Below, piece after piece: positions 6,196 to 56,225 of a DNA stretch of 64,000 nucleotides. The notes beneath the pieces were generated by a model. That model worked only from the letters and a program-made list of their open reading frames with translations. It did not search any database and was not told where the DNA came from. Each line of letters begins with the position of its first letter. Position 1 is the stretch's first letter. The DNA lies in NCBI GenBank assembly GCA_051294375.1, contig CM119264.1:13040813-13104812 (forward strand), written 5' to 3'. Made by a program: the position numbers and the translations under genes. Source of the stretch: Paraspadella gotoi. Taxonomy: Eukaryota; Animalia; Chaetognatha.

Positions 6196-9100
6196 CTCCC
6201 TCTCTCTCTCTCCTCCCTCTCTCTCTCTCTCTCTTCCTCTGCTCTTTCTCTCGCCTTCCCCCCTCTCTCTCTCAGTGTGTCACCTTCTAAATGGTAGTTT
6301 TTTAAATTAAGGTTTAATTAAACTAATTAAATTTAACATTCTTTCCGAAAAATATTATTTTATGCAATTTCGCTTTGATTTTATCGCGAATCACTCGCAA
6401 CGATCTTCGAACGGCGGAAGGCTGTCAATGACGTCACAGAGTGATCCTTTCACCTCCTAACAATAACGACGACGACGACGACGACGACCTGAATACTGCC
6501 AAAAATAGAGTGGTTAAGTGATATTTTTTTTTCTTGGCTCCTCCTGTTTATTACATTTTGTTCGTCAACATTATTTTTGACGAGGTTCACTCTTACCCAT
6601 TTTTTTGTTTTGGTTATTTTTGTCTTGTTTTGGTCACGGATTTAATCGGTTTTTCTCTTTGAAGGGCAATATCAGTCTGTCATCATCCCTTTAGTCCTCG
6701 ATATTGCAGTTAGTCTTCCGCAACGGTCTTCTTGTCATTTGTGATTTCGCTTCTAAGAAGCGACTAACTTTGCCAAAAACGGAACGAAGAAATACTAAGA
6801 AAAAATGGTTAAAAAAACCTACCCGGACCTAGTCTCCGTTTTACATTTTCCCTACAAGTGCAATTGTCAGACATATCTGTTCAGAGTAAAAAAAAAACCC
6901 GCATTTAATGCGGCATTAAGCTAATACTCTTGCCATGATGAGAGGCGCTATTTAGCAATTAATACTTAAGTTCAGTCGTTTCGCTCATAAGAAAATTATG
7001 ATAGCCAGTTATTTGCAGAACGGAGAGAGCGAAAATGACGTATACTGTGGTGGTATATTCACACCGCCTCACGTCCACCATCGTTCAGCCAAATCCATTG
7101 GCTCAGAGGGGAAACACTCCATCCCAGGCGTTGTGTTTCATCCACAGTCCTAACGAATTCCCTCTGCGTTGGCAAAGCGAGATCGTCCTAGGGTAACCAT
7201 GCCAGTGATTGGAGGCGTCACTGAGAGTCGTAAGCCCCCTAAGGCCAACAGTGAGATGCCCCATCCCAATGGGCATCACAGGCAACCCGGATGTTGCCAT
7301 AAGTGGTGAGCCCTACTATCGAACACGCAACCTTCTTAGGGTACACTACGACAAACGCCTATGGCCCTGGGGTACGCTATGACAAACGCCTATGCCCCCA
7401 CAACTCGCTCTCTCTCTCTCTCCCACTATGGTAACAGTCTTGTCAGACACCCCTCAGGCTCGAGGAATCTGAGTGATGTCTTGGCCCGGGGATCCTGTGG
7501 CAGTATATTCACACCGCCTCACATCCACCATCGTTCAGCCAAATCCATTGGCTCAGAGGGGGAACACATCACCCCAGGCATTGTGTTCCATCCACATTCC
7601 ACAGTCCTAACGACTTCCTTCTGCGTTGGCAAAGCGAGACCGTCCTAGGGTAACCGCGCCAGTGACTGGAGGCATCACCGAGGGTCGGAAGCCCCCAAAG
7701 CCAATAGTGAGATGCCCCATCCCACTAGGCATCACAGGCAACCCGGCTGCTGCCATAGTACGCTTCTTGTTATATGTACAATTTTAATCATATTAATACA
7801 GTCTCTTCTTTAAAGATACATTTAATAATATGATTATAAGGAAACGATGAAAAAATCTAGTTCTTTTCTCGTTTGAGATTATTATCATGAGTATTCGAGA
7901 TTTTTTTTATTGCTGAGTTTTTTTCTTTCTTGTCGCGGGGGAGTTTTTGGATGGGAAATATGCTAATGCGTTTCCTTATCGCGTCCCCTGTCCCACGCAT
8001 GCTCTCTCTCTCTCTCTCTAAATATACTTATTTATTATAAAAATGTACCTACCGAGAGAGAGAGTATACAAGAGAAAAAAAGAGATGCATAACGCATATA
8101 CTTCATACATATATCTACATGCATTTATATTTTCCTTGGTTTCAGATATACTATAGTTCTTTTAATTTATGTTTTCCATTTTTGTCTATCATTTCGCCTT
8201 TCTCTTGAATCTGCCAGCTGCTCCTTCTTGTCCGCCGATTTGGGATAGGGTGTTGTGTTGGTCTCGCGCAGACGTTGGGGAAACCGTTACCAAACCATGT
8301 CCAAATCTGCTTCAATCACCGACGGGTAAGGAATTCGATAGAATTACTTTTTTTAGTAACATTTAGTAACAAATTTAATCACAATTAACCCTTGCTTTGC
8401 TTTGACTTTAGATGGTCCCTATATTTCCAGAAGTCAAGACATGACAAAACAATAGACGTCCCTCACTAAAATTATTAAATATAATAATTTACAATTGTAC
8501 ATACCTACGAACTTGGTACAACAAATATAAAAAATATTCATTCATTCAATAAACAAGTCTTGCTATTCTAAATCTAACCCACGAAAGAAATTTTGATTAA
8601 ACCTTCCACTAATACCATATCAATTTAGAAGATTACTAACATTGCGACGAAGGCGCAAATTTTTTAATTTTTTTTTAATTTTAATTTTGTATTTCACTCA
8701 TGAAAGAATCTAACTGAACCTGTGAACTTTCTTAGGCGTCTTCGCTTACCGCGTCTGCCTGGAATCTGCCTCTTGGAAATGGGGAACTTGGACCAACTAC
8801 ACTCTGTGCCTGATCCATGAGAGCGAGAACGGGACAAAAGGGGTAAACCTTTAACTGATGATGCGGAGGAGTGGAGTTATGCTAACTTAGCGGGGTACCG
8901 CCGATATCAAACTCACAACTTAACGATGAATCTAAACCAACTAAATTAAAATAAACAATTAAACACGCAAGGCGCATTTGGGATGGTGCAATACTCCTCT
9001 CAGCCAATGTTATTGGTGTAGTGGAATTGGAGTTTTTGCTACATAAACATCAATTTGATAAAAGCAAAAACGGCTCGAGCCGATGTCTATGCATAGGAAG

Positions 9101-9414: not shown

Positions 9415-10603
9415 CCTCCCTCTCCCTGTCTCTCCCAACAGTCTCTTCCTTCCGCAGACCGCTCCGCTGTCCGCGTATCACCATTCACAAGCACCTGTCC
9501 TACTCTTATCTCTTTCGAAGTTGTTTTTTTTTCGTCAATGTCGTCGTCGCCGTTGGAGTCAAGGATTTTCGAGACGCGAACGTGAGTTGAGTTAATAAGA
9601 TTTTTTCTAATTCACTTAGACAATATTTGATCATAAAAGCTCTCCGCTTCGTCCTTCCAGCCTTGGTTCTGCAAGTCGTTCGTCTTGATCAACATCTACA
9701 CGATGACGACGACCTTCTTCTGGGCCTTCAACGAAGGCTTCTTCATCGTCAGAACCGTCGTCCTCGATGTCTTCGCCGTCAACACCCGACTCTACGAATA
9801 TTTTCTCATCGGATGGGGTCGGTTAACAAATCAAAGTCTTTCATATATGTAACAGAATTATCATTTTTACCTCTATTGCTTTCCCGGCTAGTCACTTTCA
9901 ATACTTATCATTTACAATAGCTACGATCACTGAGACTTGTATGGTACCACCTCTGTATATATATTATATTATGGCAACAGCCGGGTTGCCTGTGATGCCC
10001 ATTGGGATGGGGCATCTCACCGTTGGCTTTGGGGACTTCCGACCCTCAGTGATGCCTCCAGTCACTGTTTACCCTGGGAAGGTCTCGCTTTTCCAACTCA
10101 GAGGGAAGTCGTTAGGACTGTGGATGGAACACAACGCCTGGGATGGTGTGTTCCCCCTCTGAGCCAATGGTATTGGCTGAACGATGGTGGACATGAGGCG
10201 GTGTGAATATACCGCCACAATATAAGTAGCAATTGATTATCGATAGGAACGAAACGAAAAAAAAAATCTTCTCAATCAATGCTTGGCGACACTTTTAATG
10301 CGTGGTTCAGATTCGATGTTCATATCGTTTTCTCACAGGCGCGCCGCTCGCGATAACGATCCTTTGGCTTTTGGCCATGCTCTTGGTCGACACAAGTAAG
10401 TTGCTTAGCGAAGGGAACAGAATGAGCCCACTGTGATGCGAGGATACGCTTAATCGCATAAGAACCAACGGTTGAATTTGCGTAAAATTGACTGATTTAA
10501 AAAAAAGACGCAAAAAATCTCGGATTTGAATCCAGCGTCAATTTATAAACATTGGATTTCCCGAATGCCTCTTTGACTTTGGCATTGAGGAGAGAGAGAG
10601 AGG

Positions 10604-15141: not shown

Positions 15142-15402
15142 GTTGATGAACGTTTGGTGGATTTTAGTCCACCATATCCCACTCTTTTCATCTAATTCTA
15201 AAAAATTATATATTTTTCATCGAAGAGTTTAACTCAGTCACTAGCAACAACAACAGAAAAAGATAGAAGCAAAACATTCAATGTATATTCATGAAAATAA
15301 GGCGATAATGTCCTAAATACACGTTGGATAGTCATTTCTTGCTTTCTTTCTTTCTCATTGTTTTCCCGCGATCTTTTTTCTGGAAAAGCGAAAAAAAAAA
15401 TC

Positions 15403-18400
15403 TTAATTGTGGGACTCGGGAGATCGGTATCTCAGAAGATCCCTCAACCGCATAATACCGCATAATACCTCGTCCGCGAACGCAGTCGATTTCTTATTCA
15501 CTTCTTCCTCTTTCTTCTCCTCCATCCTCTCCTCGAGTGTCTTCAAATTGTGCGCGAGTTTGACGACGAAGAGAAGGACGAAGATCGACGTGGCTTCGAC
15601 AACCAGCAACGCGCAGACGGAGAACAATCGGTTCTCACCTGGTAGAAAACACCGATTGGATTTTTTTGTTTTTGGTTGCGTTTTTATGATTCGCTATTAG
15701 CCACTTTTCAGTCGGACGGTCTGTCTCTTAATATTAGGATCAGACGGTGAGATAAAAAAGTTAATACGGCATTGTTGATCTGATTTGTTGTCAATACCGC
15801 TTTGTTTTTCAGACCTTAAAATTTAAAATTTACATTTTTATTTAATTTTATAAAAAAATATAATCGTGTAATATGATATCCTGAGCGGTGAATCTTTTTG
15901 GAATCGACTTTCCTTGTTCAGTTAAAAATCAACGCCAGTTCGACTCACCCTCACTAACTTACCTTCAGCAGTAAAATACCACGCCGTCCACAGAATCCAC
16001 GCGATCGAAATCAAGGTGGACGCGGCGCAAATGTACTTGGTTTCCATGGAGGCGAACCTGGCGCCTCGCTTTATCCACGAGTGAATCGTCGTCGCCGTCA
16101 ACAGCAACATCGGGTAAAGGTTAATGATGTAGAAGGGTACGCCGTCGCAGGCGCAGGACCATCGAGGCGGAATGACTGGAACGGATGGGGAGGAGAGGAG
16201 GAAGACGGAGGAAGAGGGAACGAGGGCGACCCATTCCACGTTGAGGACGATTTGAAAGGTTGTGAGAGCGAGGACGAAGAGTGCCTGCGCGAAGTTGAGG
16301 GGTTGACGGGTCGTCACATGTGAGAAAACTCGTCAAATAACGACAATTATATCTACAAATTTCTCATGTCTCATTAATTTGTAGCATATTATCGTATTTT
16401 TATTGTTTAATAATCGCCTTAAACGTGACCTGTCGCCACGCTAATCCATCACCTGCGATTCCGCGTAAACGTAGGGAATGTCTTTGAGATAATGGTGGCT
16501 CTTGCGGTCGATCCTCGCATTTCGGACGGATTTAACGAGGAGGCAAGAAAACACCAAAGCGTGAAGAGGAGCAAAGACGAGACGACGAAAAAAGCAAACT
16601 TTGTCGGTGGAGGAAACCTGAAAGTCGAAATGACCAAACTACGCGTAATACCAGATTAATGGGGAAAAAAAATTTGACGTTAGCAAGGCAGCTCAAATTT
16701 TTTTCACACCGAATTTAAATAGGTCGGTCGATCTATCAATCAGTCTGTCCCTTTGTCATTCTGGCAGTCTGTGTCTCCTCTTACCATAAATCCTAAAGTC
16801 AGCAAGAACATTGAGCCGATTCCTGTGTTGAGGAGATAATTGAGAATCCCCGAAGATTGAACGTGTACCGGATTCTTGAAGTCGAAGAGAAAGTAGGAGA
16901 GACAAGCGAACGAAGCCAAGAACCCCGGTGCGGCCACCGACAGAATCCCCAAGCCCCATGGACGGGAACCGAAGAAGGCGAACCACGGTCCATCGGTCTC
17001 GTAGCCCGCCCTCTCCAGTTTCGCGAAGGCCTCGGCCAAGTCTTTGTCTAATTTTTCTTCATCGACAGATTGCTGAAGAGGCATAGAAGCAGGATGATAG
17101 GATTATAATGATCACTACAATTAGACATGAGATAGCCAGTGCCATCATGTTATTTTTTTTTTAAATTTGAAACTTCTAATATATAAAAATTCTCAATTTA
17201 TTTTTTCGGAAGGAGGTTTTACGATCCATCGTTCCCCTTACTACCTCGTCAGCGGTGCATGCTGCGCAAGCCGGTATGGCTTTGCATTTTTGATCAAGGT
17301 CGACTGTGCCGTTTAATCCGTAGACTTGTGCCGTTTGTTTATGCCTCAACAAACCGATTTGAAAGTCGGCAACGTCGACAGTCTATTTATATAAATTTTA
17401 AAAAAAAGATTAATCTCATTAAAATTTTCTTTCTTTCCTCCATGCAGCCTATACAAATATCTACTGTATCAAGCACGAAGTCAAAAGTAAACTTCTGAAT
17501 TTCGTTGAGTCAAACCTTAAAAGTTCCCCTCAACGGTCCCTCCTGAAGATTCATAATGGTGTAGATATCAGCAGAAGAATTTCTGTCCATTAATGCAAAC
17601 GTTCTCAAAGAGAGATAGTCGACCTTGAATGAGTCCTGTTCCATTCTTTCCATCAGAGTTGAATAAATGCTTGAAGGATCTGATCGATAGGAATCAAAAA
17701 CATCCTGGAGAATGGAAAAGGATAGAATAGAATAAAGCTACTAGTTAAAATAAATGCATCAAAAGGGAATATTTGATAATTAGCTCTTATTTGGCTTAAA
17801 ATTTGTTAATATTTGAAGCTGGTTTTATGTATTAAATGCACAACCTGGCAAATTCCAACTCCAACGCATTTAGAGCGGAGGAGGTAGGAGAATGATCTCG
17901 CGAGCATAATAGCGACTTGCATCATGGCTTCCACGGATGTACTCTTGTAAACAGTTTTCGGTGAGTCCAGGTTTTCGGCTCCAGAGCATGTGCGGTCGAA
18001 TTTAAAATCTAAAATAATGCTCAATTATTATTTTATTTTGGCAACCGACGGGTTGCCTGTGATGCCCATCTCACTGTTGGCATTGGGGGCTTCCGACCCT
18101 CAGTGACGCCTTCAGTCACTGGAGCGGTTACCCGAGAACGGTCTCGCTTTGCCAACGCAAAGGGAAGTCGTTTGTACTATGGATGGAACACAACGCCAAT
18201 GGGATTAGCTGATGCGGTGTGAATATATCGCCACATTATAACCTTTAGACCCTATGAATTTATGGCATTTCGTATTCATGATAAAAACTAAAATATATAA
18301 ATATCTAATGAAATTACAGACCTTAAGACTTTAGTGTTTTACTTACTTCCATTCATATTACATTGAAAATTTTCCATCCAAAATTCAGAAAAAAATTCTT

Positions 18401-21400
18401 TCCAAAGTAAATTAGGAGATTCTGAAAGATCCGAGAGCTTTAAAGACCTATAAATAAAAATTGTAATCTACTAACACAAAAAATTAAAAACTAACTTTAG
18501 ATAAAGAGTGCTACTTTTTAGTTTTAATAAGCTTAAATCTGGATTTTTTATGAATGGCTATCAATTCTGCTCCAATTTCAATTTTAAAAGAATATTGATA
18601 AGAAAAAGGTTTATATGAAATCAATAGTTTTTAATTTGTTTAATCAGTTATCAGTTAAAAATCAGCATACCTGTAGTATTTCAAAAAAGGAGTGTTGATA
18701 ATTTTCTTCGGAACAATAACTACAGATCCAAGCAGCTGTTGCATATAAGTCTCATAAGTAAAGACGTATGATGCTTCCTTGATGACCTTTTCTACAGATG
18801 TTTGGTCAAACCAGTCATCGACTCCAATCCAGTAAAGACGACCAAAAGCATCAGCATTTTTGGCGGCAAACATTACCGACACCATGCGAGCTGGGTTCAA
18901 AAGCGAAACCACCACAAACGCACCTTCAAGCCAAGAAGAATAAATAGTTAAATAATGTAGCACTCTCTTTCATTTCTGATCAATGAACAGTAGTTTATAA
19001 CTCACGTTCATTTGACATCATCTTCACCAATACTCTTTCCATATTGGCCACAGTCTCGACGTCGGACGATTGAAGCTGATTATCCGAAGCGACGCAAATT
19101 CTCCGCGTTCCAGATTGAATTTTTTCCATCAATAGCATTGCCAGCCGAACAGAAGTGGCGCTGGAATCTCTAAGTAGGTGAATTGAATTCCATTTCTGAA
19201 CCTCCAATACGGACAAGAGAACTTCAATTTTAGCCGTTTTGGAGGGGATCGCGCGAATGAAATGAGGATATCTAAAAGTATGGAGAACTAATGGACTATT
19301 AAACAATTTGACCCGTTTCGATATATTTTTAACTTGCCGATGTCTAGTGTTGAACTCTGGGTCGTCGGTGATCGCGATCTGGGGAACTGGCACATTTAAA
19401 TCTTTGATGGCGGCGTGGATTCCTTTTGAAGACAATGGGTTAGAGTCCCCAACAATGGCTAGCGTAATCGTCTCTCGGGGTTTGGTGACGGGAGAGATGA
19501 AAGCCCCCTGGCCTAAAATGAATACGTAAAAATTCTATTAAAATTACAATAATTATTACTAATATTTTTAGTATCATTAAAATTATCAACATTAAGTCCA
19601 AAGTTTGCTTGCCATAGACTTACCAAGAATAACACTTCTCGTAATACTTTCTGCAAGTATCCCATTTCCAAAAGTATCAAACGCCTGTAAATAAAAATTC
19701 CAAACAAATCTCAAAAACATAACCTTGACTATTGGAAAAAAAAAGGTTTGATTAGATTTGTGGCTTGTGTTAATAGATATGTATATCTTCTGACCTTAAC
19801 TACTATTGGCACTCCAGGCAAAATAGTATTTTCTAAATTGATGTTTTGAACAACCCAGTCAAATGCGAGAAGATTTTCCATGTTTTCCTTTAAAGAAATT
19901 TCTTCAAAAATGTATTTACTTAATATAATACATATTATTACATAAATGTTAACAAACTAAAATTTACCTGAAGAAAGTTACCTCCTTCGTCTCTCAAATT
20001 TAACATGAGATGAATTTCAGCGACATTATCAATCTGATTGTCTATAGATTGCAAGGGAAGATCAAACTGAAACGTATTCTGTATCGTAATCAAGTCTGAA
20101 AAAAATTACACACATTATATGTATTGTTGTGTCTTTCTCTTAATCATGAATTTATTCATTTATTAATCAACATTATCTTGTTTTTCCGTCAGTAAAAAAA
20201 AACGCGTTGCTAAACAACGAAGATTTCACGAGTTACTTTTAAAAGCGTCAAGAAACTCACCATTCACGGAACCACAACCAATTTTGCTGCACTTGTCCGA
20301 ATTTATAGTCGAGGGAAAATAAAATCTGTAAAAAGTTGCTTTAGGGACAGGAGGATCCAACTGACGAGAATGATATCTTCCCACTTGAGCGATGGATTTG
20401 TCTCCCCTAAAGACTCCTTCGTTGATGTTGAGAATATTTAGCGGTACACGGGCCAAACCTTTTAAAAAATGTAATAAATTAAATACCGTGATTCAGGGGC
20501 GGCGAGATGGCGGACACCAACGCCTTCGGCGAGGTCCCCTGGAGGCCCCGGGAGGGCCCCTGAGAAGAAAGAAAAAAAAAGGAAAGGAAAGAAGAAAAAA
20601 AGAAGAAAAAAAGAAGAAAAAAAGAAGAAAAAAAAGAATGGAAGAAAAAGGGGGATAAAAAGGAATTGAGTCTTTATGAAAAAAGGTTCAGTCTGTGCAG
20701 AAAGTCTTACTGATCAAATTCATGTTAGATCTTACTTGGGCCCCTTTAGACTTTAGGGTTCAAGTTGGGCCCCTATTAAAGTAAAATCAATGCCTCTTTA
20801 TTGGTAATGTCCCAACTGTTTCAGGGATAGAGTCCATTTCACTCTTAATGCGACCCCTTATTCATTCAAATTACGGCCCCTCTAGAGCCCTGGAGCAATT
20901 TTCAAGGCAGAATTTCTGCCAGAAAGTCGGTAATCGAAAATGTAATTATACAATTCTAATACTTTAAAATTCAAAGTGCCATTTTTTGAAAAAAAACTGT
21001 TAATAATAGACAAATGTTTTCTAAAAAAATGATGGAATAAAACATTACAAAAATAATGATAATATTGTTGATTTGGAAGAGGGTTCAATACCTTGCAAAT
21101 TGTAGGCGAATTGAGATTGGTTGTCAGAAATCGAGATAAAAATGCTGCTCAAGATAGCGGAGGTAAAGCATTTGTAATTATTGATTGGACACTTATTACG
21201 TTCCGCGATTGACAAAGCATGAAGAATACTGTCGATTCCATCGTAAATGTTAGTGTGATCGTCATAGTATGAAAATTTATCGTAATCCACGTATTTCAGT
21301 GATGAAGATTTCAATTCTTCACTCTGCTTCTTTACTGTCATTTCTAGAAAAGGATTATCCACTGATGAGTTGGAAGCGTCCCTAGAATTAAGAACCATAA

Positions 21401-23172
21401 CTTATGGTATTACTTATGGCATAAGTAGCGCCAATTTATCTTTTTACGCCACTCAAAAAAGAATAAATTTAAATTAAATTTCACCGCTGTAAATTTGATT
21501 TTCCTTATTCCTCATGACCGCTGTTTGTTTTTAGTGAGTTACCTCAAATGGGTGTTAAAGTTGTTCGGTAATCTCCCGAAAGATTGAGCTACTATCAATG
21601 AACCTAAGACATCGTTTGCTATTGGCAAATTTTGATCGATGGCTTTTCTGAGGAAAGGTAACGTCTCCTGAAACAAAAGCCACGTGATGGAGCTGCGACG
21701 AATCTCCGCTTCTTGCTTCATGACTTTTTGGAAGACTTCTTCTCCTCCGAAAACAATCACGACGCCGACCTGAGACAAAATCGCATAATATACAATTTAC
21801 AATGGAATGGCTGAAAATTAAAAAAAAAACACAAAAAAAAACACAATAATTTGTAAATTCTAAAAATAACGGCAACTCCTACCTCGCTATCTACGAAAAA
21901 ACGCGTAACATATCTCTTAAGCATCTGAAGGATATCTTGATCGTTGAGGGTTTTGTAGATTTTGAGTCTGTACGCGACGTGGATTTGTTCTTCATTTGGA
22001 GATTCGGCAAGAATTCCGTAAAACCTTACAGCCAATGCTTCCCAATAGGGGGAGTCTTGAATTATAACTCCAATGTTTGACCATTGATAAGCCTACACAA
22101 CGGAAAAAGATTTTATGATGAACAATTTTTTTACGACGAAGATAAAACCAGTCTACATGTTGCATATGCCTAGTCACTATGAATTTTACTCCGGTTTTTT
22201 ATATAACAATTAGTCTACAAAACCTATAAAGTTTTCATAAGTAACGAGTGATTTGGACTTCATGTACAAAACTTTTGAAAACATTTGATTTCTTTGAGAC
22301 AAAAGCCGAAACTCCACCTTGTGGCGGTATATTCGCACAGTCTCACATCCACAATCCTTCTGCCAATCCCATTGGCTCAGAGTGGGAACCCATCCACAGT
22401 CCTAACGAGTTCCCTCTGCGTTAGCAAAGCGAGACCGTCCTCGGGTAACCGTGAGAGTGACAGGATGCGTCACTTAGGGTCGGAAGCCCCCGAAACCAAC
22501 AGTGAGATGCCCCAATGGGCATCACAGGCAACAAGGCTGTCGCCATCACCTAACCTTTAATAGCAAGTGAAAGGCCGATAAAAAATCGTTGGCATTGGGG
22601 ACGCTTTGAAAGAGATGCGGCTGCTCGGTCAGCGTGACGTCGTTGGATCGAAAGTTGACGTAAGGAACCGGGACGAAGGGCGCCAATCCGTCGGCAAGAA
22701 ACGACACTACCGCCATCGAGTCGTCCTCTCCCACGACGACGATGCGCTTGAGGCCGCTGATCGATCCGTCGGGTGGAATCTTAGCGGCGAGGTATACCTG
22801 ATCAGATTCTCCATATATATTCGTTTCATATGTTTTATACTGGTTGCACCAATTTCATAGATTGTAAAATATTAAGTTGTGGCGAATTCTAAATTGGCCT
22901 CTCGTATAGCTTGGTGAAACTCAACTCGTCCGATTGGCTTGGACAGCTATGACACGCATGTCTTTCCGTTGCTATAAATCCCTATTTTGTAACTTTTTAT
23001 TTTAGTTTTTTGTATTTTTTAGTTTTATAAACTTTCGCTCAGGAAATTATATTTTATTTTTCCTTTTTTTGGCTCATATTTTTGTTTAGTTTTTGTTTTC
23101 ATCTTTTTAGCCCATTTTTCGTTATTTCCTTTACCCTCATTTTTCTATTTTTTTTTTCTTTTGCCTTTAACT

Positions 23173-23211
<39 letters not shown>

Positions 23212-24105
23212 GTCTTTCTTTCTTTCTTTCTTACTTATATATTTTTTTAATTTCGATCTACTACGAAATATGAAATAAATTTTAAAAGCCGTACAACTAG
23301 TGGACAAGGTCAGGTCGTCGAAAAAGCGTTACTTTAAGAGAGTTGACGAGGGCGTGGAGCCTCGAAATGAACTGGTAAGGAGCTCCGCATGTGGCGAAAG
23401 CGACTGCTGCTACGGAGGGGCGCGGTGGTGGGAATTCTGAGAGGACGAAGTTGACGATCTCGGGCAAGACCTATGGGAAATATAGGAATTATAATATAAC
23501 AAAATACTAATAGATCATCGCCAAAACTTTTCGCAAAAATACGTATAAAAAAACGCAAAGCAACATTTTCATCAAAGAATTATTTTGATTTTTTTTTTTC
23601 ATCGACTCACAATCAGCTGAAATTATCTCCACCTTAAAACAACAACGACGACGACGGCCAATGCGAAAAGCGACATCTTTCTCACCAATTCTTGTGGCGA
23701 TCTGGCGACGGAGCCAGGCGCTCCGCATTGCACATCGTTCGTCGATGTCTCGAACAGAGGCAAAGCGACGAAGAGGATTGTCTCCGCCGCTTCGCAGTCG
23801 CCGAAAGTCGCCAGGGGGATTTCGCTCGGGATATTCTTAAAGATGGCGCGGCAGTTGGAAGCTTTTCAAGTTAAAATGTTGAGAGACTTAATTCTAAACT
23901 TTTCTTATGAACCAGTTTTATACGGTTATGAGATAACAGTAAAAAAAACATTTAGTTTCGCCAGGTCTCTCCTTCCCCACAAAAGCCAATTCGCCTCTAT
24001 TCTTCAAACAACTTTGAAAAAATTTAAATATTACTTACCACTTTCAGTTTCGTTCATGGCTAAACTTAGAACTAAAATTATTAGGAAATTCTTAATTCCA
24101 GCCAT
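15403..24105 (-). CDS. Class C (mGluR-like) GPCR paralogue A with two tandem Venus flytrap modules and 7TM
   Basis: Signal exon MAGIKNFLIILVLSLAM from 24105. VFT1 (~23860-20260) with VPYVNFRSNDVTLTEQPHLFQSVPNANDFLSAF and YQWSNIGVI. VFT2 (~20095-17245) with LLAFDWVVQNINLENTILPG, VPQIAITDDPEFNTRHR-YPHFIRAIPS, LYWIGVDDW, FSEFWMENFQC. 7TM motifs NPVHVQSSGILNYLL, SCLLVKSVRNARI, ETKYICAAS. Stop at 15403. Confidence 0.88.
18037..18235 (-). mobile_element. Solo LTR of the twister-LTR family
   Basis: Reverse-complement, internally shortened LTR copy with exact 4-bp TSD TTAT; lies in an intron of class C GPCR A. Confidence 0.9.
20494..20892. mobile_element. Possible degenerate hAT-type MITE
   Basis: Starts CAGGGGCGGC and ends GCCCTG, with repeated GGGCCC motifs inside an AT-rich intron. 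TIRs match over only 5 bp and no 8-bp TSD was found. Confidence 0.3.
22320..22547 (+). mobile_element. Solo LTR of the twister-LTR family
   Basis: LTR copy with exact 4-bp TSD ACCT, a few nt from a splice donor of class C GPCR A. Confidence 0.9.
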
Positions 24106-24605
24106 CGTTTTCTTTTAACATAGTTATTTTGCCAGGATAAAAATGTAAAAGTTTAAAAACGCAATAAAAAAAAACCAGTTTTAAAACAAATTCAATCTCA
24201 TCTGTCAGTACAAACCGGTTTTTTTTTTCAATCAAGCGGCTGATCAATCCCTAGGTTTTTCGTTTACATTGCACGGTAAGAACTAAATTGTACTTATGAG
24301 AGAATCGAGAGGCAATTTGCCAATAAAAACAAAGATTCTCGAATTACATCGTGTATATCTTGCTGAAAAATAAACTGCAGTAAAAAATAACAGTATGTGA
24401 AATTTTTATTTTACATAGTTAACACTAACAGAAATCAAGTTTGACAAAAAAAAACCACCCAAATATACAAAGAATAATAATTTATCACTATTTCAATTAC
24501 CAAAAACAAGCGCAGGTTATCATTGACAGAAGAACTGTCTTCACAACAAACCATGAATCTCTCCATTAAAAATTTATTTTTGATTTTCCTGATTTGTACC
24601 AAAAG

Positions 24606-27600
24606 TTATTGGAAATAACTCATTTTGCTGATCTTAAGGGTTGTCCCATCTATCTTGTGAATTCGTTCCTTTTGTTTAGACTGGTTATTGCTTGGTAATC
24701 TTGTCACATGTTCAACATGATTCATCACATAGTTTTCAATTGCGCCACGTTCCTAAAATCGAAACCAAATGTATGTTGTTTACCGATCGGGATATACGAC
24801 CAAACGGCTAAAAACTTTTAAACAAAATGATTGTCGTCATTAAAATATATATATGTTAATTAGTAATTAAAGTTTAAAAAACTAATCTTGGATATTTATT
24901 GATGATCCCAAACCTGAAAAACGACGTCTCTGGAAGACAGAGCGGATTTTTGACTTATAATACTGATTGCTTTTAACTCGAGTGTCTTGAATTTGTTTGT
25001 CCACTTGATAACAATGAGAAAAATAAATATACTGAGAGATTCTACAATCAGCAGTAAGCATATGGAGAGTAACTGTATTTCGCCTGAGTTTAAGGATTAA
25101 AAACGTCTTAATATAATATTAGATATTAGATATTAGATCGCGGCCACTTTTTTACCTTCGCTCAAAAAGTACCACACCGTCCAGAGAATCCAAGCCAAAC
25201 AACAGAATAACGACGCCAGCGAGATAAACCACGTCTCTTTATCAGCAAATTTAGTTCGTCGGTTGATCCAGGAATGGATAAGCGTTAACAGCAGTAAGAA
25301 CAGTGAGTATATGTTGATAAAGTAAAACGGAATACCGTCGAAGGAGCAAGACCAGCGCGGAGGGAGATAGGGAACAGTGGGGGAAATCAGGAGGAATGTG
25401 CTGGTGGAAGGAACGAGAAGAACCCATTCCAGACTGATGACAACTTGCACAGCAAAGAGGGATGTGACAACGAGGAGCTGAGAGGATAAGTATTAATTTA
25501 ACATAAATTTTTACGTCATTGGCGACGTACTACTTTACCTGAGATCCTGCATAAACCATCGGAATGTCGCGCTGACACTTTTGTTTGAAGCGATCAATTC
25601 GCGCATTGCGAATCGATTTCGCAAGCAAGCAAGAAAACAAAAGAGCGTGGAGAGGGGCAAAGACGATACGACGCACGGCGCACACACGTGGAGTCGATGC
25701 CACCTAAGATCAAATGTTCCCAACGACAAAATTTAAATTTCGGGCGTCGTTCTGTCAATTGACAATTTTCATCCCCCTCGTTCTTACCAGAAAGGTCAGG
25801 CAGAAAAGAAAGGTGAGGCAAATCGCAATGTTGAGGATGTAATTCAGAATCGGAGATGACTGGACGTGGACTTCGTTTTTGAAGTCAAGGACTAAGAGTA
25901 CCAGAGTGGCAAAGGAAGAGAGGAATCCTAGGATTACGATGCCGAAGACGATCATGCCCCAAATCCTCGACGCAAAGAATTCCAACTCTGGCTCGTTTGG
26001 GTCATAACCCGCGGTTTTTAGTTGGTCAGATGGTTTAAGTGTGGGCGATGAAATGCTCAGATTAAATGTGTTTAAGTCCTTCAGAAAATTATTAAAGGTT
26101 GTTAGAGAGTGCCAACTCTCATTTGCATTTTTGATTTAGAATTTTTCTCGGAATGTAAAATTATATATTATGGGTTATAAAATATCATTAATATTTTATC
26201 ATTTGATTGATTTTGTCTTAGATTATCAATGAAGCAAAAAAAAAATAAATACATTTTTTTTAGCATTGTGTCGAAAAATCTCATTTCTAAGGTACTATTA
26301 ATTAGTACTTACGGCTCCAATCTGCACGCAATCTCCGCAAACCGAGTCCTTTTCACATTTTGATACTAAATTGATCCTTTCCCGTTTTGGTCCATAAGCA
26401 GAGACGAGCAAGTCGTTCAGTTGCAACTCATTCGATTCGTGGGAACCAACATTTACAATCTGAATCAACGAGATGTATTTCATGAATACAACTTTATAAT
26501 ACGTAATTATCGTTAGCTTTAGCTACATACATACATTTTGACAACACTCTTACTTTAAAGGTATTTGCGAGAGTTCCCTTTTGAACGTTTCTTATAGCGA
26601 AGTATGCCGAAGCGTTTCGTTGGGTCAATATTAGAGGTCTAAGCTTAAGAGAGTCAGCGAGAGGGTCACCGACGATACTAGTTGTTTCGATCTTTCCCAT
26701 GAGATTTTGATAGAATGTATCGGAATTTTGAACGACCTGCGTTATCGCCGTCTGTGACGGAGTTGTTGACGCAATCAATTTCAATATTCAAGAATTATGA
26801 GCAAGACCTGATGGTTTTCTTACCGAGCATATCGTGGCTATTCCACATATGGATTGAAGGTGAGCTCGAAAAGCTTTGGTCAGTAAAAAAGCGACCTGCA
26901 TCATAGCTTCGACATCGTAGCTTTCATATGTGGTCTTAGGTGAATCCAGAGTCTCGTCCCCAGTGCAAGTACGGTCGTACTGAAAGCCTTTAAATCATTA
27001 TTAGTTATTAGAATTAACTTAAAAATATATATAGTACATAAATTTTTTTGACAGCCTTCATTTTTTAAAAACAATTTTTCACTGATCAACATTAAAGCGA
27101 CTTACTTCCACCGAGATTGCATTTAAAGTATGACATCCAAAAATGGTAAAAAAACTCGCGCCAAACCAAATTAGGAGAAGAACCAATCATTGTCAAATTT
27201 AACGACCTACAAGTAAAATAAAAAGAGAAATTAGATTATAATTAATCTTAAATACGTAATAGTTATAAATCTGTTCCATTCTTACTTAAAATAGTTCAAA
27301 AAAGGCACATTGATCGTTCTTTTAGGCACTATCACTATGGATCCCAACATCTGTGACGTAAAACTATGGAGACTAAATATGATTCCCGTTTGCTTTATGG
27401 TGTCGTTGATTGTGATTTCATTGAACCAGTCGTCAACGCCAATCCATTGCAGATGGCCAAACGCTTCAACTATGGAGGCGACGTACATCATCTCGACCAT
27501 TCGATCGGGTCCGACGAGTGAGATGACAACGTTGGCATCTATGAAGTCGGATGTGAACATCTTATTTTTGATCCAATTTCGCAGATGGTCATTGTGAAGC

Positions 27601-30600
27601 CAACTTACTTTTTACCAACATCATTCTTTTCAATATTCTCTTCATATTGTCGATGGTCTCGACATCCCTCGTTCTCAACTGGTTGTCAGTAGCGACACAG
27701 ATCTTCCTGTCGCCAGTAAGTCCTTTGATCTTCTGCTCCAGTAGCATGGCGAGACGAACGGATGTGGCGGAGGAGTCTCGAAGGACGTGGACGTAAGTCA
27801 AGTCGCGGTTCTGCAGCAGCGCGATAAGCACGTCGATCGTCATCGTTTTGCTCGGCACTGCGCGCAGGAAGGTCTGGTATCTGAACAGTCAAAGTTTGCT
27901 TGTAGCCATTATCTTAATTAGCTAATGGTTAAGTTTAGTTCAAGTATGTAAAGTAAAGATAGCCGAGCCACAGTAGTTAAGAGCTGACCTATCTCTTCTG
28001 TTCATTTCTGGGTCATCCGTGATGCCGACTTGCGGAAATGGAACCTGCATGTCAGTAATGGCAAATTGAATGCCTTTGGAGGAGTCCAACACAGAATCGC
28101 CAACGACGCTCAATGCGATTTCATGTTGAGGTTTGGTAATCGGGGAAATGAACGCTCCTTGGTCTTGAGGATGAAAAAAAAGGCCGAGTGGAATAAAATG
28201 AAAGAAATGCAAATCTAAATCTAACTCTACATTTAACTCTTACTCTTACTCCAGTCTTACCCACGAGAAGGCTTCGCATAGTGCTTTCTGCAATTTGTTC
28301 CGATCCGAACGTGTTTAAAGACTGCAAAATTTAAACTAAGTTGTGCCAAGTCTGAATAATCTTTAGTCGAAGAATTAGTACATGGGTAATTCTATAATTA
28401 AAATTAATTAGATTATATTGTTTCTTTAATAAGAATTATGAAATGATTTAATTAGAATAAATATTTCTTAACCTTAATAAGAATTCGAATGCCCGGCAAA
28501 ATCTTATTTTGTTCGTTGATTGTCCTCAAGGCCCAATCAAATGCCAGGAGATTTTCCATGTTCGTCCGATGAAAATTTCCATGTTCGTCTTTGAGTTTCA
28601 ACATCAAAAAGATCGTGACGACGTTGATGGTGTTGGTGTAGACTCTTGGAGGATGATGAAGCGGGAGGTCAAAATGACGTACGTATTTGACGGCCATGAG
28701 ATCTGAGGAGAGAGGAATAATGAGGGAAGAATGAGAATGAGAATCGTGATTAGTTATTAAAGGCAAAACAATTTTTAAGCAACGATGTTATCTCAGAATG
28801 TCTACGAATAAAATATTTACTTACCCTCGACCCATCCGCAGCCATTGGGTCCACACAATTTCGAATCGATCTTTTCAACCTCAAATTGTAAATTATTGTA
28901 GAAGACAGCAGAAGGAATCTGCGGATCGAGTGTCCGAGATACGTAGCGACCGACAGATTCGATTACTGGAAAATTGCTTCCATATTTTTTGATATTGAGA
29001 ATGTCCAGACCAACGCGAGCTAAGCCTATTTTTGGAAATGTTAGTTATCAACCCTCTGAGGGTCTTTAAGTCAGTTGATCATGGCAGCTAACTATATCAT
29101 GAACCGAGGCACCGTTCAGAGGAAGGTCAAACCTTGCAAGTTATACGTGAAGGTTGTTCCTTGGTAGGCGAGAGACTCGAATTGCGTGCTCAGAATACCG
29201 GATGAGAGGCAGGAGAAATCGTGGAGGGCACAAGAACGCTTCTCCGCATACTCTAGCCCTTGGAGAATGCTGTAAAAGGCGTTGTAGAAGTTGATATGAT
29301 CATCAAAGTGACGAAATGCGTCGTAGTCAACAAAAGTTATTTGTCTCCCAAGCACCGCACTCTGCTTTCGCAAGCATTCCGCCAAAAATGGGTCCGTCGC
29401 GTAGTGTGATGAAATTCTGAAAGCGAAAAGACCGAGATGATAGTTGGAAAATAAATACGTAAATGGACGGTGTCCAACGAAATAAATAAAAATAAACTCA
29501 CTTTAAATGCTCAGTAAAGTTTGATGGAAGTTTGGCAAAGGTCTGTGATAGAATAAACGATCCGAGAAGGTTTCTTACATTCGTCAATTGTTTTTCAATG
29601 AGACTTCTAATGTAAGGGAGAGTTTCTTGGAACAGCATCCAAATAGGACTGAATTTGTTGACGGTCAATCTGTCGTGAATAATCTGGAAAGACTTCCGGC
29701 TTCCAAAAAAAATAACAACGCGGGCCTTTTGCGAAAAAAAAAATTAAATCAATACTACAAAAAAAATGATTTATTTCGACATTCATGATATAAAAAAAAA
29801 AAGAACCTGCTCCGCGTAATAAAGTTTCTGAATATAATTTTCTAGAAGAAAGTCGATGTCATCGTCATTGAAAGAAGTGAAGACCGTCAGCGTATATGCG
29901 ATTTTAATCTGTTGATCTCTGGGCGTCTGCCCCAGCATTCCATAGAATCGTTCGGCCAAAGATTTCCAGTATACCGAGTCCTCAACCAAGACTCCTATGT
30001 TGGTCCATCCATAAGCCTATGTATTAGAAATGTAGGCAAAAATCGGGTATTATATAGAAGGGTAGTAGGTTGTGGCGGTGTATTCGCACCGCCTCACATC
30101 CCATTGGTTCATAGGGGAAACGCACCATCCACTGTGGTTTCCACAGTCCTAACGACTTCACTCTGCGTTGGCAAAGCGAGACCGTCCTAGGGTAACCGCG
30201 CCAGGGACAAGAGGCGTCACGGAAGCCCCCATCTCAATGGGCATCATAAGAAACCCGGCTGTTGCTGTAAGGTAATGTTTACTTAAGCTAGGACTAAGCT
30301 CTGACGAACAAAGCCCGAGGCTTTTTTTAAATATATTCTTATACCGGCCAAGGTAGAATGATGGCAATATTGTTAATATTAAGTTTAAAAAAAATCCGAC
30401 TATAAATATAGAAAATATTAACCAAAATCTTCGGAAAATTCACCCCTTCTTTGGAAGATTTTTCGCCATAGAAAGATTTTTCCCGAATCTGACTCCCGGT
30501 TGAAAACTCTTAGAATTCCTATCGTTAGCTCCTCTTTTACTTTTACTTTAAATAAAAATTTCACCAAAATGGACTAATTAACTTTACCATGATCGTATCT

Positions 30601-33223
30601 TATCAAAATAACCTAATAAAATGTAAAGAAAAATTATGAGAGCCCTTCAGACACTTTGCCAAAGGATTCCAAAATTGGACCTCATTTGTTGAACAGGAAC
30701 ATACCTCAGTCACGTTTATATTGTTTTCAAGAAAAAAAATCCCTTTCATTTCTATATAAAATCAGAGATGGAAAATTTTTCCGTCCAGAAGCAGTCTATT
30801 TGTTCTGGCTTGTTTGATATCAAGATGTTGATGATTTGACAAGAGAAAAAAAATGCGAGCCCTTCAGATGCAACAGGATCGGAATCAAGTGTTTTTACAT
30901 CGATATTTTACCAGAATTTTTACCAGGAGCGTTTATATTGTTTGGTAGTCAGATTTGAACGAAAATCTCCATTGAAAAAGTCTTCCTCGATCTCTAAGAA
31001 CGACGTAGACTCCTACTTAAGCGCAAGAAAAAAAAATTTCTTAATTTAAAGAGGGAAAGTTCAAAGCATCTTAGCATTCGAATTTTTTGGTTTAATTTCT
31101 AATTTATAAAGAAACAAGTTTATAGTTGTAGAGCTGTTCTTTATTCGTCATTTCTGTTAAAGTTTACCCGCCGAGTGGGTTTCATCTCATGCACAGATTT
31201 TGTAACTGAATTTCGAAAACTATTTTTTTTTGCTTAAAATGTTGCGACGTGCGATTGTGACGATTTTGAAAATTGTGAAATATTCAAGAGGTTTTCGAGA
31301 ATGATTCTAGATCTTGCTTTATTCTACCTGACACCCTTCATAGCAGTTACCCCCCAAAAAACACATTCACATTCTTCACACCTCCAGCAGTCGGGCGAAA
31401 GCGGAAAGAAAATCGTTTGTGTTCGGGACGCTCTGAAAGAGATGCGGCTGTTGGGTGAGAGAAACGTCGTTTGATCGAAAGTTAACGTAAGTGACGGGTT
31501 GAAAAGGATCGAGACCCGTGGCGAGAAACGAAACCACCGCGGGCGAGTCGTCTTCGCCGACGACGACGAGACGTTTGAGATGCGCGAGGGATCCTCCAGG
31601 GGGAGGTGTGCCAGCCGAAGACGATGGAGAAGAGAGGTGGCTCTAAGACATTAGTAAAAAAAAATGTCATCGGGATTTTCGACTTGAATTGGCGACGATT
31701 ATAATCACGACAACAAAACCTGGATATCAACAACGAGGTCAAAAAGATAAGATATGAAAGAATAGGGATCGCCGCAGGTCGGAAAGATGACAATGGCGAC
31801 GGAGGGAAGCGGATTCGGGAATCTCGACATCACGAAGTGGACGATCTCGGGCACAACCTGTCGAGCGGATTGGTCGCAGGGGGTAAAAAACAAGAGTTGG
31901 TCCAAAATTAATTTTTTGTCGAGTTTAAAAGGGATGGAAAAGAATTAAAGAATTACGTGAACGTGCGACGGTTTTTTGTAAAAAATATAGAGATTAGAGA
32001 ATTTGTTGCGGTTGCAACATTAGGCGTAGCACAGTAATTCTGCTCCAACTATTGATATAGATCAGGAGAAAATGACGAATACCGGGTAGCTACCTCTACA
32101 ATGATCTGTATGTACCAATATTTTGTTGCTCTGTATCGTGGTTTTAATAAGGTTTTCTCTTACGCGAACTACAGGGCTACAGGCTACAGGGCTACAGTCT
32201 ACAGGGCTATACTTTAAATCTCAGCCTATGCTCATCGCTCAATGCTCACCAATTCCGACTCCTCTTTAAAGACGGAACCGGGAGCGCCGCAATTGGATAC
32301 GTTGACTGACGCTTCAAAGAGCGGGAGCGCGACGAAGACGATGGTGGATGACACGTCGCAATCACCGTAGGTTGACATGGGAACGTCCACCGGAAAGGAC
32401 TTGAAAATGGCGCGGCAGTTGGATGAGTCTGCTTGGAAAAAATCAATTAAAAAAAAACTTTTCTACAGGGGTGGGACCCTATATCGAGACAAAATTTAAA
32501 AAACCATTAATCTAAAGCTCTTAATGATTTTTAAAATCAGAATAAATATTCATAAGTACTCTCTCTTAGCTTTTAGTTGATATATTAATTGCTTTGAAAT
32601 TCTTTGATATAATGCTTTCTTTGATGCAGCAAAGGCAACTGTTCGGTTTTTTTCCACGCGTTTTGAAAGAAATATGTTTGAATACTTATTGTTAAATCTC
32701 ATTCTAATACATAAAAGTTAAAAATATTTTTAACTGTACCCAGGGAAACGAATTTTATGTTCTACTGAGCCGTGGAGGGAAGTTATTGCCTCAGAAATAT
32801 TTTAAGACCCGTGCTTTTTCCCTTTATAAATGTTACTTTTCTGCATACCGAGGCGACTGATGATTCTCTGATTTGTTGTCTGTACTGAATCAACCTTGTT
32901 GCGTTCGAATAAAAACGCTTAAATTATATTACCGAAAAAAAAAGAAAAAAAATATAGCAATAATCCTCCTATTAATTTTGATTTATAAAGCATCAACATT
33001 TTATGAGGTTTTTTCCAAAAGTTTTTCAATAACTAAAAAAAATATCAACGTTTCGTGTTCATATAGATATCATTTTTTAAAATTATCTTAAAGGAGAATG
33101 AAATAAAGTAAAATTGTTACCGTCAAAGCAAGGTTAATTCTCACCATTGTATCTGAGAGTAAATCCTGATTGCAACAGTGACAGAATGATGATAAACGAT
33201 ACGAAGAAAGGATTCAGCGTCAT
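24606..33223 (-). CDS. Class C (mGluR-like) GPCR paralogue B with two tandem Venus flytrap modules and 7TM
   Basis: Nearly exon-by-exon colinear with paralogue A. Signal MTLNPFFVSFIIILSLL from 33223; SNCRAIFK...VFVALPLFE...CGAPGS; AYGWTNIGVLVEDSVYW. Second VFT NMENLLAFDWALRTINEQNKILPG, LRDSSATSVRLAMLL, LQWIGVDDWF. 7TM VHVQSSPILNYIL, PPRWSCSFDGIPFYFINIY. Stop TAA 24606-24608. Confidence 0.88.
30071..30269 (+). mobile_element. Solo LTR of the twister-LTR family (internal deletions)
   Basis: LTR copy with exact 4-bp TSD AGGT; lies in an intron of class C GPCR B. Confidence 0.88.
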
Positions 33224-33834: not shown

Positions 33835-39019
<5,185 letters not shown>

Positions 39020-45235: not shown

Positions 45236-45931
45236 TAAAGAATAAAAGAAATAAAAGAAATGCAAAAAATGTTACAATGGTTTACAATTTGAAATTTTTC
45301 CAATTTTTCCAATCGCAGTCTTGTAAAAGATTTTATTTTTATTTGTATTAAAATTAAGATATAGCTTCTCATTAAAAAGTTATTTTGAGTTCCCATTTTT
45401 ATTAGAGATTTAAAAAAATTTTTTTGAATTTCATCTTCAATATTATATACTGCAATATGTAAATTAGATTAAAGCATTTCTATATACTAATTTTGGATAT
45501 GATAATGAGTACTATAATCTAATTTGCATATTGCAGTAATCATAATGAAGTGGAATTCAAACAAAAAATACTTAAATCCAAATGTAATAAGAAAAAATAT
45601 CAAAGCTATTTCAAGATGAGAAGCCATATCTAAATTTTTAACTTACTATGAATGCACACTTTGTAAAACTTTATCATAATTCATAATAATTTTTATTTTA
45701 AAAAAAACGGTAAGTCACAGCCAAACGACGACGACGACGACGACGAACGACGTCACAAAGAAGCTCACCCGAATGAATATCAAGCCTGAACCGGCTTCGC
45801 CGGTCATGGCTTGATAAAAAGTTGAGTCTGCTCTCTCTCGTTGACCAACGACTTAGTTGGTTTTAAGTTTCTTTAGAGCTTACCGGTTTTTTGTCTTTTG
45901 ATCCTTCACCGACTGAGGAACTTTCTTGATG

Positions 45932-46892
45932 CTACATCGAATCCAAATCCGAGTCTTTTTTCTTCAACCGCAAAACCTGTAAACCGATGATACAATATTA
46001 TTACTGCACTAATGAAAACTTGTGAAGTAAAGATTTCTCGTGATTAAAATAGTTGAAATGATTACAATAAAAAATACAATTTCAAATTTAGTCACTGACC
46101 AAACAACAAGAGAAGATCATTCCGAATATTTGAAGACAACAGATGCCGAGTCCGACGGCTCCGAGAATTATCAGATGTTCGCGCAGGTGCTTTTCCAGTC
46201 GGGGGATGCAGCCCTAGTTAGGTGGAGTTTATGAATTAATTTAAAATCAACAACGAGAGCAACTAGGCCAACTCACCGCATAATTAACATTGCTGGGGTG
46301 ATCCCTCACCCCGCAACCGGGTCTGTAAGATTTGCAACAGGAATCAGGCGTCAAATTTGGTTTTGATCCGTTGAAGTCGGAATTTCTGAGCCAATGGGAA
46401 TGGCGCCAGTCGGCGAAGGAGAAAGCGCCGCAACATCGGAACTCTCTGGTGGGGTCGATGTGGGGCGACGGTGGAAGGGTTGGTCGAAAGAGAGAGCGAG
46501 GAGTTGGCGGAGTGGCGGAGAGAAAGAATATGGAATTGTAACGGTGTGGGATGTTGAGAGATGATTGGAAAGGAACTCAATTATAGGACGCTTATATTAA
46601 AACAGTGGAAAAAGGGGCTGGTTATGTGAAAATGCAAAAAAAAAAAAAAAAAAAAAAAAATGCAGCCTACCCTTCCCGAATCTTTTTATCTCTTACCTCT
46701 GGAGTCTATCAATGGCGATTGTTTTCTCCTCGTCGAACTTATAATTGCGCAATATCGTCGCGTTAAACTCATTGTGCAATTCTTTCTGCAGTTGATCTTT
46801 GCCGTAAAGGGTCGCCAACACTCCGCCAATGGCCTTGTGGGGGAGTGAGAGATTGAGAGAGTGAAAGAGTGAAAGAGAGAGAAAGGGGTGGA

Positions 46893-46930
<38 letters not shown>

Positions 46931-47601
46931 CATCAAAGAAAAAGAAAAGGCAGAAAAGCGCCTGAGCCCAATAAAACTTTAGATCCGAGTTTCTTACGCC
47001 ATTACGGTTGGCAGGAGCTCCCATTTGCGTCTCTAATTTCGTTTATTTAGTCTTTTTTAAATTTACATCCCTTTCTTTTATTGTCAAATACGAACTGAGG
47101 GGCTTTCTTTAATTCCTTTAACTAATCAACGAGGAGCATAAAGCACAAAGTTCGTTTCAACTGTATAATACCGTAACAGTGTTTCTAATTTTTCATTCTC
47201 TTATAAATCTTCATTGATTAAGTTATAATTAAAACGAAACCAAGTAACCATTAAGCCAACCGATCCCAAATAATTTCTCTCTCCGATTTCGGTCAACCGG
47301 ACATCCTAACCCTTACTTACCTGCAGGAGAAAAATGACCCAGAGGCACATCGAGTAAGTAACCAGACAACCGCGTTTTTCTTGCCAGGCGCCGCAGCAGC
47401 CAATAAATCCCACCTGCGGTAAAAAAGTTTTCATCGCTGAACCGAATTCGGAATTAACGACAAGTAAACGAAAAAAAGAAGAAAAACTTGTGATAGAATG
47501 TAATTTATGAATCAGATTCAATTTATTTTTGGTCAAGATGAAGACAAGCCCGAAGAATTATGATCTCACCTCAGACACGATTCAAGTGGTTCTATTAGTT
47601 C

Positions 47602-47660
<59 letters not shown>

Positions 47661-55495: not shown

Positions 55496-55581
<86 letters not shown>

Positions 55582-55820
55582 TCCAGGCGGCATCGTCGGA
55601 GCGGCATCTTCGTCTCCCCGACCGGCGTCATTCGCCACGCCCACTCGGTGGGCGTCTCCCTCCTCGTCTGGTTCCTCGGAGGTATCATCACGCTCGTCGG
55701 CGCCGCCTGCTACGCCGAACTCAGCGGCGTCGTGCCGAAGAGTGGCGGGGAGTACGCCTACCTCTTGACGGCGTACAAGGGGACAGGGCCGTGGTGGTTC
55801 GGGGAGGTGGGTGAAGAGAG

Positions 55821-55893
<73 letters not shown>

Positions 55894-56178
55894 GGGAGAT
55901 GGTATCTAAACGACGTATGAAACCCACCTCCGCAGCTGCCCGCCTTCATGTACTGCTGGGTCTCACTCACCTTACTCAAGCCGGCGCATTCGCCATCATC
56001 ACCAAAGTCTTCGCCACTTACCTCGTCGCGCCTTTCTTCGGCGGCTGCGAACCGTCTGGCACTGCTGCTGACGCTCGTCGCCGTCACTGCGCAAATCGTC
56101 ATCACGCTTGCAATTGCGTGTCCGTTCGGGGGCGCTGAGAATGCAGGTTAGGGATAAAATATCAATACAATAACAATC

Positions 56179-56225
<47 letters not shown>

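Follow-up and report, generated by a model that had tools for sequence, protein, structure and literature searches.

The stretch of Paraspadella gotoi DNA analysed here (64,000 nucleotides of contig CM119264.1, assembly GCA_051294375.1, positions 13,040,813 to 13,104,812 of the forward strand; called the window below) is intron-rich animal DNA with a GC content of 38%. Two neighbouring paralogues, genes A and B, lie on its minus strand. Each model is that of one spliced G protein-coupled receptor (GPCR) of class C, in which two Venus flytrap modules (VFT1 and VFT2) precede a single seven-transmembrane (7TM) domain. The models were built by hand from the sequence and corrected with RNA; their parts are the following.

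24606..33223, minus strand: gene B, 22 exons, 1424 amino acids, VFT1-VFT2-7TM
33145..33223, minus strand: B exon 1, predicted signal peptide ending in a phase 1 intron (sequence and hydropathy; outside the RNA contig)
28825..32431, minus strand: B VFT1 and two-Cys linker, exons 2-8, phase 1 introns on both sides (Pfam and family profile)
26313..28702, minus strand: B VFT2 and three-Cys linker, exons 9-17 (Pfam, profile and PDB matches)
24914..26078, minus strand: B stalk and 7TM, exons 18-21 (Pfam 7tm_3 and alignment)
24606..24752, minus strand: B terminal exon, cytoplasmic tail (RNA piece 24429-24751)
15332..24105, minus strand: gene A, 23 exons, 1369 amino acids, VFT1-VFT2-7TM
24039..24105, minus strand: A exon 1, predicted signal peptide, phase 1 (sequence and hydropathy)
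20261..23861, minus strand: A VFT1 and two-Cys linker, exons 2-8, phase 1 introns on both sides (Pfam and profile)
22555..22797, minus strand: A exon 4, segment lining the VFT1 cleft, the best-conserved stretch (partner: B exon 4, 31382-31642)
17245..20095, minus strand: A VFT2 and three-Cys linker, exons 9-18, containing a 66-nucleotide (nt) GC-AG intron (Pfam and profile)
15469..17072, minus strand: A stalk and 7TM, exons 19-22 (RNA, Pfam and alignment)
15332..15379, minus strand: A terminal exon, lysine-rich tail (RNA joint 15469>15379)

The reading frames are open in both models, and all introns are of the GT-AG type with the single exception of A intron 12 (19272-19337), which is in frame. 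Both genes have an extra terminal exon beyond the read-through model, with stop codons at 15332-15334 in A and 24606-24608 in B, and an RNA contig carries the gene B transcript past its stop to 24429. A first-pass annotation, made from the sequence alone, had thus ended the pair too early, at 15403; the linkers have two Cys after VFT1 and three Cys between VFT2 and the first transmembrane helix (TM1). Aligned end to end, the two proteins are 49% identical over 1358 residues (VFT1 52%, VFT2 49%, stalk 23%, 7TM 57%, tail 19%). Intron positions and phases are common to both genes, gene A having one additional intron, in VFT2. With phase 1 introns at both ends of VFT1, insertion or loss of such a module would leave the reading frame intact. 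Judged by hydropathy only, the 11-residue maximum at the N-termini was 3.0-3.1 versus 1.6-2.25 at the VFT1/VFT2 junction, in agreement with the earlier statement that no internal signal peptide separates the modules.

RNA evidence consisted of contigs, not molecules, from one public run of one study, which was taken as RNA by guess. Within 27250-30060, a single 4362-nt contig covers gene B exons only, with an intron depth of 0, and all eight joints between 27538 and 29806 were seen directly, each as CT..AC on the plus strand. The joint between VFT1 and VFT2 (28825>28702) lies inside this contig with 200 letters on its short side. The contig extends to the 7TM exons and the 3' end of gene B, exons 5-22 fitting at a constant offset, while exon 1 (by length arithmetic) and 11 nt of exon 2 fall outside it. 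The gene B contig joins the two modules, the outcome looked for in the first-pass annotation's own check. In the case of gene A, exons 7-22 fit a 4222-nt contig. Exon 7 (VFT1) and exons 19-22 are found on it, shifted by 44 relative to the model throughout; the eleven intervening introns have therefore been removed as modelled, in total length, and the joint of exons 8 and 9 itself is not among the listed joints. Contig depths of the two genes were equal (29.6 and 29.4) and were not used as evidence. We conclude that the pair is real and expressed and that the presence of VFT1, VFT2 and 7TM on one spliced chain is confirmed, directly in gene B and via exact offsets in gene A.

Domain content was determined with Pfam on 38 exon pieces. 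ANF_receptor was matched twice per gene, at the same part of the profile (approximately 93-173 of 353), once in exon 5 within VFT1 (E 0.0026 and 0.0014, below the curated cut-off) and once in exon 12 or 13 within VFT2 (E 7e-4 and 5.8e-9). 7tm_3 was matched in six membrane exons, with B exon 20 above the cut-off, and the membrane domains of A and B align in full to class C 7TMs. No match to NCD3G, the nine-cysteine domain, was obtained in the 38 pieces, or in six linker-spanning open reading frames (ORFs) at E up to 10. When the spliced proteins were scanned with a profile of 60 modules of related proteins, exactly two VFT modules were found in each, VFT1 at 55-59 bits and VFT2 at 192-200 bits; shuffled VFT1 sequences, 200 for each gene, reached a maximum of 8 bits. 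A second profile, made of 31 V2R, CaSR and flatworm modules, also revealed two (36 and 81-91 bits). Direct comparison of the VFT1 and VFT2 profiles gave a weak match (20% over 384 columns, E 0.012). In the Atlas, a VFT2 piece fell with ANF clusters at 0.94, sharing 162 features, fewer than the 170 usual within one family, and VFT1 exon 4 had no usable match. By alignment, the 7TM domain keeps the Cys pair of TM3 and extracellular loop 2, the TM3 Lys and the TM6 Glu, as in mGlu3; the role ascribed to the Lys and Glu is that of an ionic lock, and their conservation is at most suggestive of dimer formation and G-protein coupling. Pfam, profiles and RNA thus agree with the first-pass description of a tandem class C pair with two VFTs per chain and without a nine-Cys domain, and the exon-piece and family-profile scans returned the combination it had predicted (two ANF_receptor, 7tm_3, no NCD3G). 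Its assignment of the pair to orphan class C receptors is likewise borne out, and 7tm_3 and VFT are on the same chain.

When 1.84 billion representatives were searched by HMMER with a VFT2 profile, 26 proteins came up, 20 of which were scanned with Pfam. Several carry VFTs in series with one 7tm_3 and without NCD3G: three VFTs in the amphioxus Branchiostoma floridae (LOC118426443), four in the hemichordate Saccoglossus (LOC100374272) and the crinoid Anneissia (LOC117110613), and five in the nemertean Tubulanus (LOC141898800), the molluscs Babylonia (LOC143274691) and Physella (LOC131957655), and unnamed records. The suspicion that multi-VFT receptors already exist as uncharacterised predictions in other invertebrates was therefore correct. 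Like A and B, these receptors have tandem mGluR-type VFTs with short Cys linkers; A and B differ in having only two modules, in being far more diverged and in a VFT1 that lacks an otherwise invariant coupling Cys, and several modules of the multi-VFT receptors, but none of A or B, keep the amino-acid signature. A Macrostomum model has four modules and no 7TM in the piece scanned; one single-VFT Schistosoma receptor and two short unnamed pieces were also among the proteins scanned. No protein with two VFTs on one 7TM and a three-Cys linker was present among 44 proteins fetched. Word-based protein searches gave no match for a VFT2 ORF or for a pair of 7TM exons, and six family 7TMs retrieved just 8 V2R/CaSR-like proteins among 7994 scored; these are weak searches and provide no evidence of absence. 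Drosophila CG32447 and, in C. elegans, F35H10.10 or C30A5.10 might have the same design, although the available parts of papers gave no domain count that would confirm it.

Two further groups emerged from the same scan. Seven Polypterus 'CASR/V2R' models contain many partial VFTs together with NCD3G and resemble fused V2R/CaSR gene predictions, which can mimic multi-VFT receptors in searches. Five mollusc proteins have two VFTs and no 7TM by Pfam. Those of Patella (SNE40_015081), Bulinus (Btru_052726), Batillaria (BaRGS_020056) and Sinanodonta (ACJMK2_016025) resemble A and B in having exactly two VFTs, with three-Cys linkers; in place of the 7TM, however, they carry a single membrane helix plus a long disordered tail, and their amino-acid signature is largely intact. 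Across the five proteins, most modules keep three to five of the five binding residues, and the group may represent an undescribed family of single-pass amino-acid receptors.

Membership of A and B in the invertebrate multi-VFT clade is likely, judging from several comparisons. Module profiles of A and B matched amphioxus, hemichordate and crinoid repeats best (81, 74 and 68 bits for VFT2), and their 7TM scored 69 bits (amphioxus) and 50 bits with family members versus at most 24 bits with V2R/CaSR. In 7TM trees of 21 and 17 rows (isoforms and long rows excluded; outgroups only V2R/CaSR and one flatworm receptor, without canonical mGluRs), the pair sat on a long stem as the sister group of the 10 family rows, with support of 87/83 when the flatworm row was included, and also without it. 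Shared characters also favour the family link. After VFT2, though not after VFT1, A and B have the three-Cys linker, as do 43 of 46 family linkers, and the pre-linker strand bears a Tyr in all four window modules, 27 of 49 family modules and one of five scorable nine-Cys modules. In VFT trees (48 and 31 of 75 modules, again without canonical mGluRs), family repeats group by position across phyla, and the serial design is therefore old. The pair would then be a much diverged branch, with two modules, of an ancient family of mGluR-related receptors in invertebrates that has two to five repeats of a VFT and a three-Cys linker, and it probably arose by reduction from a multi-VFT ancestor.

Several results speak against this placement. 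VFT1 was grouped differently between VFT trees and models, and the window modules are too long-branched to place. The multi-VFT matches of the HMMER scan reflect partly summed repeat scores. With exon alignments, solved mGluRs versus multi-VFT receptors scored 14-16 versus 6.6 bits (A4), 14.1 versus 14.2 (A8), 14.1 versus 12.1 (A9), 19.8 versus 23.6 (A2) and no match versus 18.2 (A3). The best single-domain match to the VFT2 exon profiles, 48 bits on A2, belongs to the single-VFT Schistosoma receptor (residues 145-264), whose 7TM does not match, and on the family 7TM profile mGlu3 scored 138 versus 93-98 for A and B. Instead of through shortening of a multi-VFT ancestor, the second VFT could have come about in this lineage on its own, a single-VFT mGluR-like gene having undergone an internal duplication. 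The comparable exon-level scores to mGluRs fit such an origin, as does the phase 1-1 cassette formed by VFT1; an approximately unbiased (AU) test did not reject a VFT1+VFT2 clade (p 0.50), and one intron has an identical column and phase in the two modules (chance approximately 0.03). Both histories, however, would lead one to expect a shared intron, neither free tree made sisters of VFT1 and VFT2, and the linker and pre-linker Tyr are shared with the multi-VFT family. We consider an independent duplication somewhat unlikely.

Binding pockets were compared with those of mGluRs. In mGlu1, Ser165, Thr188, Asp208 and Asp318 matter for glutamate binding, Asp318 being common to the glutamate and Ca2+ sites (available part of PMC5372683); in mGlu2, helix F runs from Tyr216 at the pocket end to Cys234 at the stalk end, which is bonded to the Cys-rich domain (available part of PMC12394075). 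The residues were mapped at approximately 20% identity, and the mapping is uncertain at one column per module. Out of five site residues (Ser165, Thr188, Asp208, helix F Tyr and Asp318), two at most are present in any module of A or B, which bears out the first-pass view that the glutamate-binding Ser/Thr motif (SYAST-like) is replaced; of the two replacements it gave, NFRSND and AITDD, the latter occurs in VFT2 of A, and B has GITDD. At the five columns, VFT1 has Ser (by motif position), Asn, Ala or Thr, Tyr, and Gln or Glu; the Tyr of helix F is retained (Y224 in A, Y236 in B), and an Arg stands two places before the Asn. VFT2 has Pro or Leu, an ambiguous Thr188 column, Lys, no Tyr, and Asp, so that the Asp318 equivalent is kept while those of Ser165 and the helix F Tyr are gone and Asp208 is replaced by Lys in both genes. 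A Cys located 18 columns behind the helix F Tyr is found in 73 of 75 modules and is absent solely from the two VFT1s, which are also followed by two linker Cys rather than the three usual in the family. Two further Cys pairs were lost as pairs, one per module; loss of Cys two at a time is as expected of a folded domain. The best-conserved 50-residue window of the whole protein lies at the VFT1 cleft (84% between A and B; the best VFT2 and 7TM windows reach 70% and 68%). The DNA of this stretch is just 76.5% alike, which points to selection and not conversion. Together, these patterns suggest that VFT1 and VFT2 lost complementary parts of the link from site to stalk, VFT1 being a putative distal sensor and VFT2 a putative proximal relay.

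Among solved structures, the VFT2 exons and the family 7TM matched mGluRs best (mGlu1-8; PDB 8wg9, 3mq4, 8tqb), weakly, with a best E of 0.003 on exon profiles. The helix F Cys, the lobe Cys pairs, the TM3 Lys and the TM6 Glu are common to mGluRs and the pair; mGluRs, unlike A and B, have one VFT, a nine-Cys domain and an intact Ser165/Thr188/Asp208/Asp318 site. GABA-B receptors also have no NCD3G between VFT and 7TM (available part of PMC12716839), but they have one VFT, and A and B have the helix F Cys (in VFT2) and a three-Cys stalk. mGluRs and T1Rs led the PDB searches, the GABA-B match being marginal (E 0.64); exon alignments A3, A5 and A6 gave no PDB match. Because the closest solved structures to the VFT2 exons are those of mGluRs, and these exons keep the stalk-tying Cys, the absence of NCD3G does not support a GABA-B-like identity for the pair. 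CaSR, V2R, T1R and GPRC6A share the class C fold and differ in their one VFT, their nine-Cys domain and the low 7TM scores given above; they provide a precedent for tandem paralogues and for heterodimers.

A and B are thus serial-VFT class C receptors, and for their mode of action we propose the following, with confidence that is evenly balanced. The outer VFT1 would bind a small ligand, probably not a standard amino acid. The inner VFT2, predicted to be disulfide-tied to the stalk, would pass the movement of VFT1 to the membrane domain and the G protein, acting as relay and spacer, and the receptors would presumably work as dimers, like other class C receptors. Since the VFT1 pocket lacks acidic amine-binding residues and has gained an Arg, the most specific guess that can be made is a ligand that is an anion and has no alpha-amino group. 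A fuller version, which we hold to be unlikely, would have the distal VFT catch a non-amino-acid anion, the pocket-dead proximal VFT act as a lever on the 7TM and the paralogues form a heterodimer, the pair being the smallest and most tractable member of an undescribed family with gain and loss of phase 1-1 cassettes. Some considerations cut the other way. Loss of its tether could equally uncouple VFT1 from signalling, and the constraint on the conserved VFT1 segment may be for dimerisation, the usual class C dimer helices lying in the corresponding segment. In the automatic alignment, the Ser column is occupied in VFT1 by Glu or a gap, and the Thr188 column in VFT2 by Thr.

The main alternative is that VFT2 alone drives signalling, by a non-amino-acid ligand, possibly a cation or a protein, with VFT1 an uncoupled spacer, dimerisation or protein-binding domain. 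Only VFT2 retains the helix F Cys and the three-Cys linker, it alone has the equivalent of Asp318, the residue shared by glutamate and Ca2+ in mGlu1 (PMC5372683, in the part available), and VFT1 is the more diverged module by profile bits. Yet VFT2 has lost the equivalents of Ser165, Asp208 (a Lys in both genes) and the helix F Tyr, and the best-conserved protein stretch lines the cleft of VFT1; we regard signalling by VFT2 alone as unlikely. It is also improbable, in our estimate, that each pocket has a ligand and the two signals are integrated within the receptor: the near-equal conservation of the modules between paralogues (52% and 49%) and the several repeats per chain that keep four or five of five signature residues in relatives would accord with two ligands, but the modules of A and B have lost complementary site-to-stalk parts, and neither keeps the full set. 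The first-pass suggestion of an intramolecular VFT dimer, in which VFT1 and VFT2 fold back on each other and the receptor acts as a monomer, fared worse. Approximately 28 residues separate the last linker Cys from the first VFT2 core strand, versus approximately 12 in relatives, a point in its favour; relatives with three and five modules on the same linker cannot all pair within the chain, and one 7TM per chain would forfeit the 7TM-7TM rearrangement of class C activation (available part of PMC12394075), making this arrangement very improbable. That a secreted VFT gene and an ordinary receptor gene were misread as one, as in the fused Polypterus models, is barely credible given the spliced VFT1|VFT2 joint in RNA, a short phase 1 intron whose position agrees between the paralogues, the absence of a stop, and the lack of a second signal-like stretch by hydropathy.

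Reviews describe three ectodomain designs of animal class C receptors, VFT with NCD3G, VFT alone, and Cache with EGF (PMC12716839, in the part available), to which serial VFTs add a fourth. No account of a GPCR with VFTs in series was found in the literature searched, which excluded subscription papers and was covered in available parts (e.g. PMC12716839, PMC6307864, PMC4302439, PMC2670285, PMC2246102, PMC1192796, PMC10670001, PMC13176968, bioRxiv 2020.04.23.037242, PMC5372683, PMC12394075). The design is not unique to this locus, being already visible in databases as uncharacterised receptors. The contribution of the locus is a form with the minimum of two modules, present in two copies, whose complementary losses open the mechanism to testing. 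It poses the puzzle of how closure of a distal clamshell could reach the 7TM through another clamshell. At approximately 1400 residues, versus 2300-2900 in relatives, the proteins are far easier to express and solve, and the complementary losses supply point mutations that discriminate the sensing from the coupling domain.

A dispersed repeat of approximately 260 bp, probably a short interspersed (SINE-like) or miniature inverted-repeat (MITE-like) element, occurs in the window in six copies that are 71-89% alike (7038-7302, 7492-7760, 9967-10227, 18029-18212, 22319-22546 and 30070-30265). Three of them lie inside introns of the receptor genes; contig depth of the repeat in the run was very high, and it had no match in Rfam. 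Elsewhere in the window, a tRNA gene (35128-35200, minus strand; Rfam, 58 bits) was found, together with an imperfect inverted repeat of approximately 290 bp (45350-45638). Pfam further identified a Tetraspanin gene (46250-48350, minus strand) with a 71-nt direct repeat at 47949-48087, an amino acid permease gene (AA_permease_2; 55477-58075, plus strand), and a PQ-loop gene (60257-61638, minus strand) that we take, by resemblance, to be cystinosin-like.

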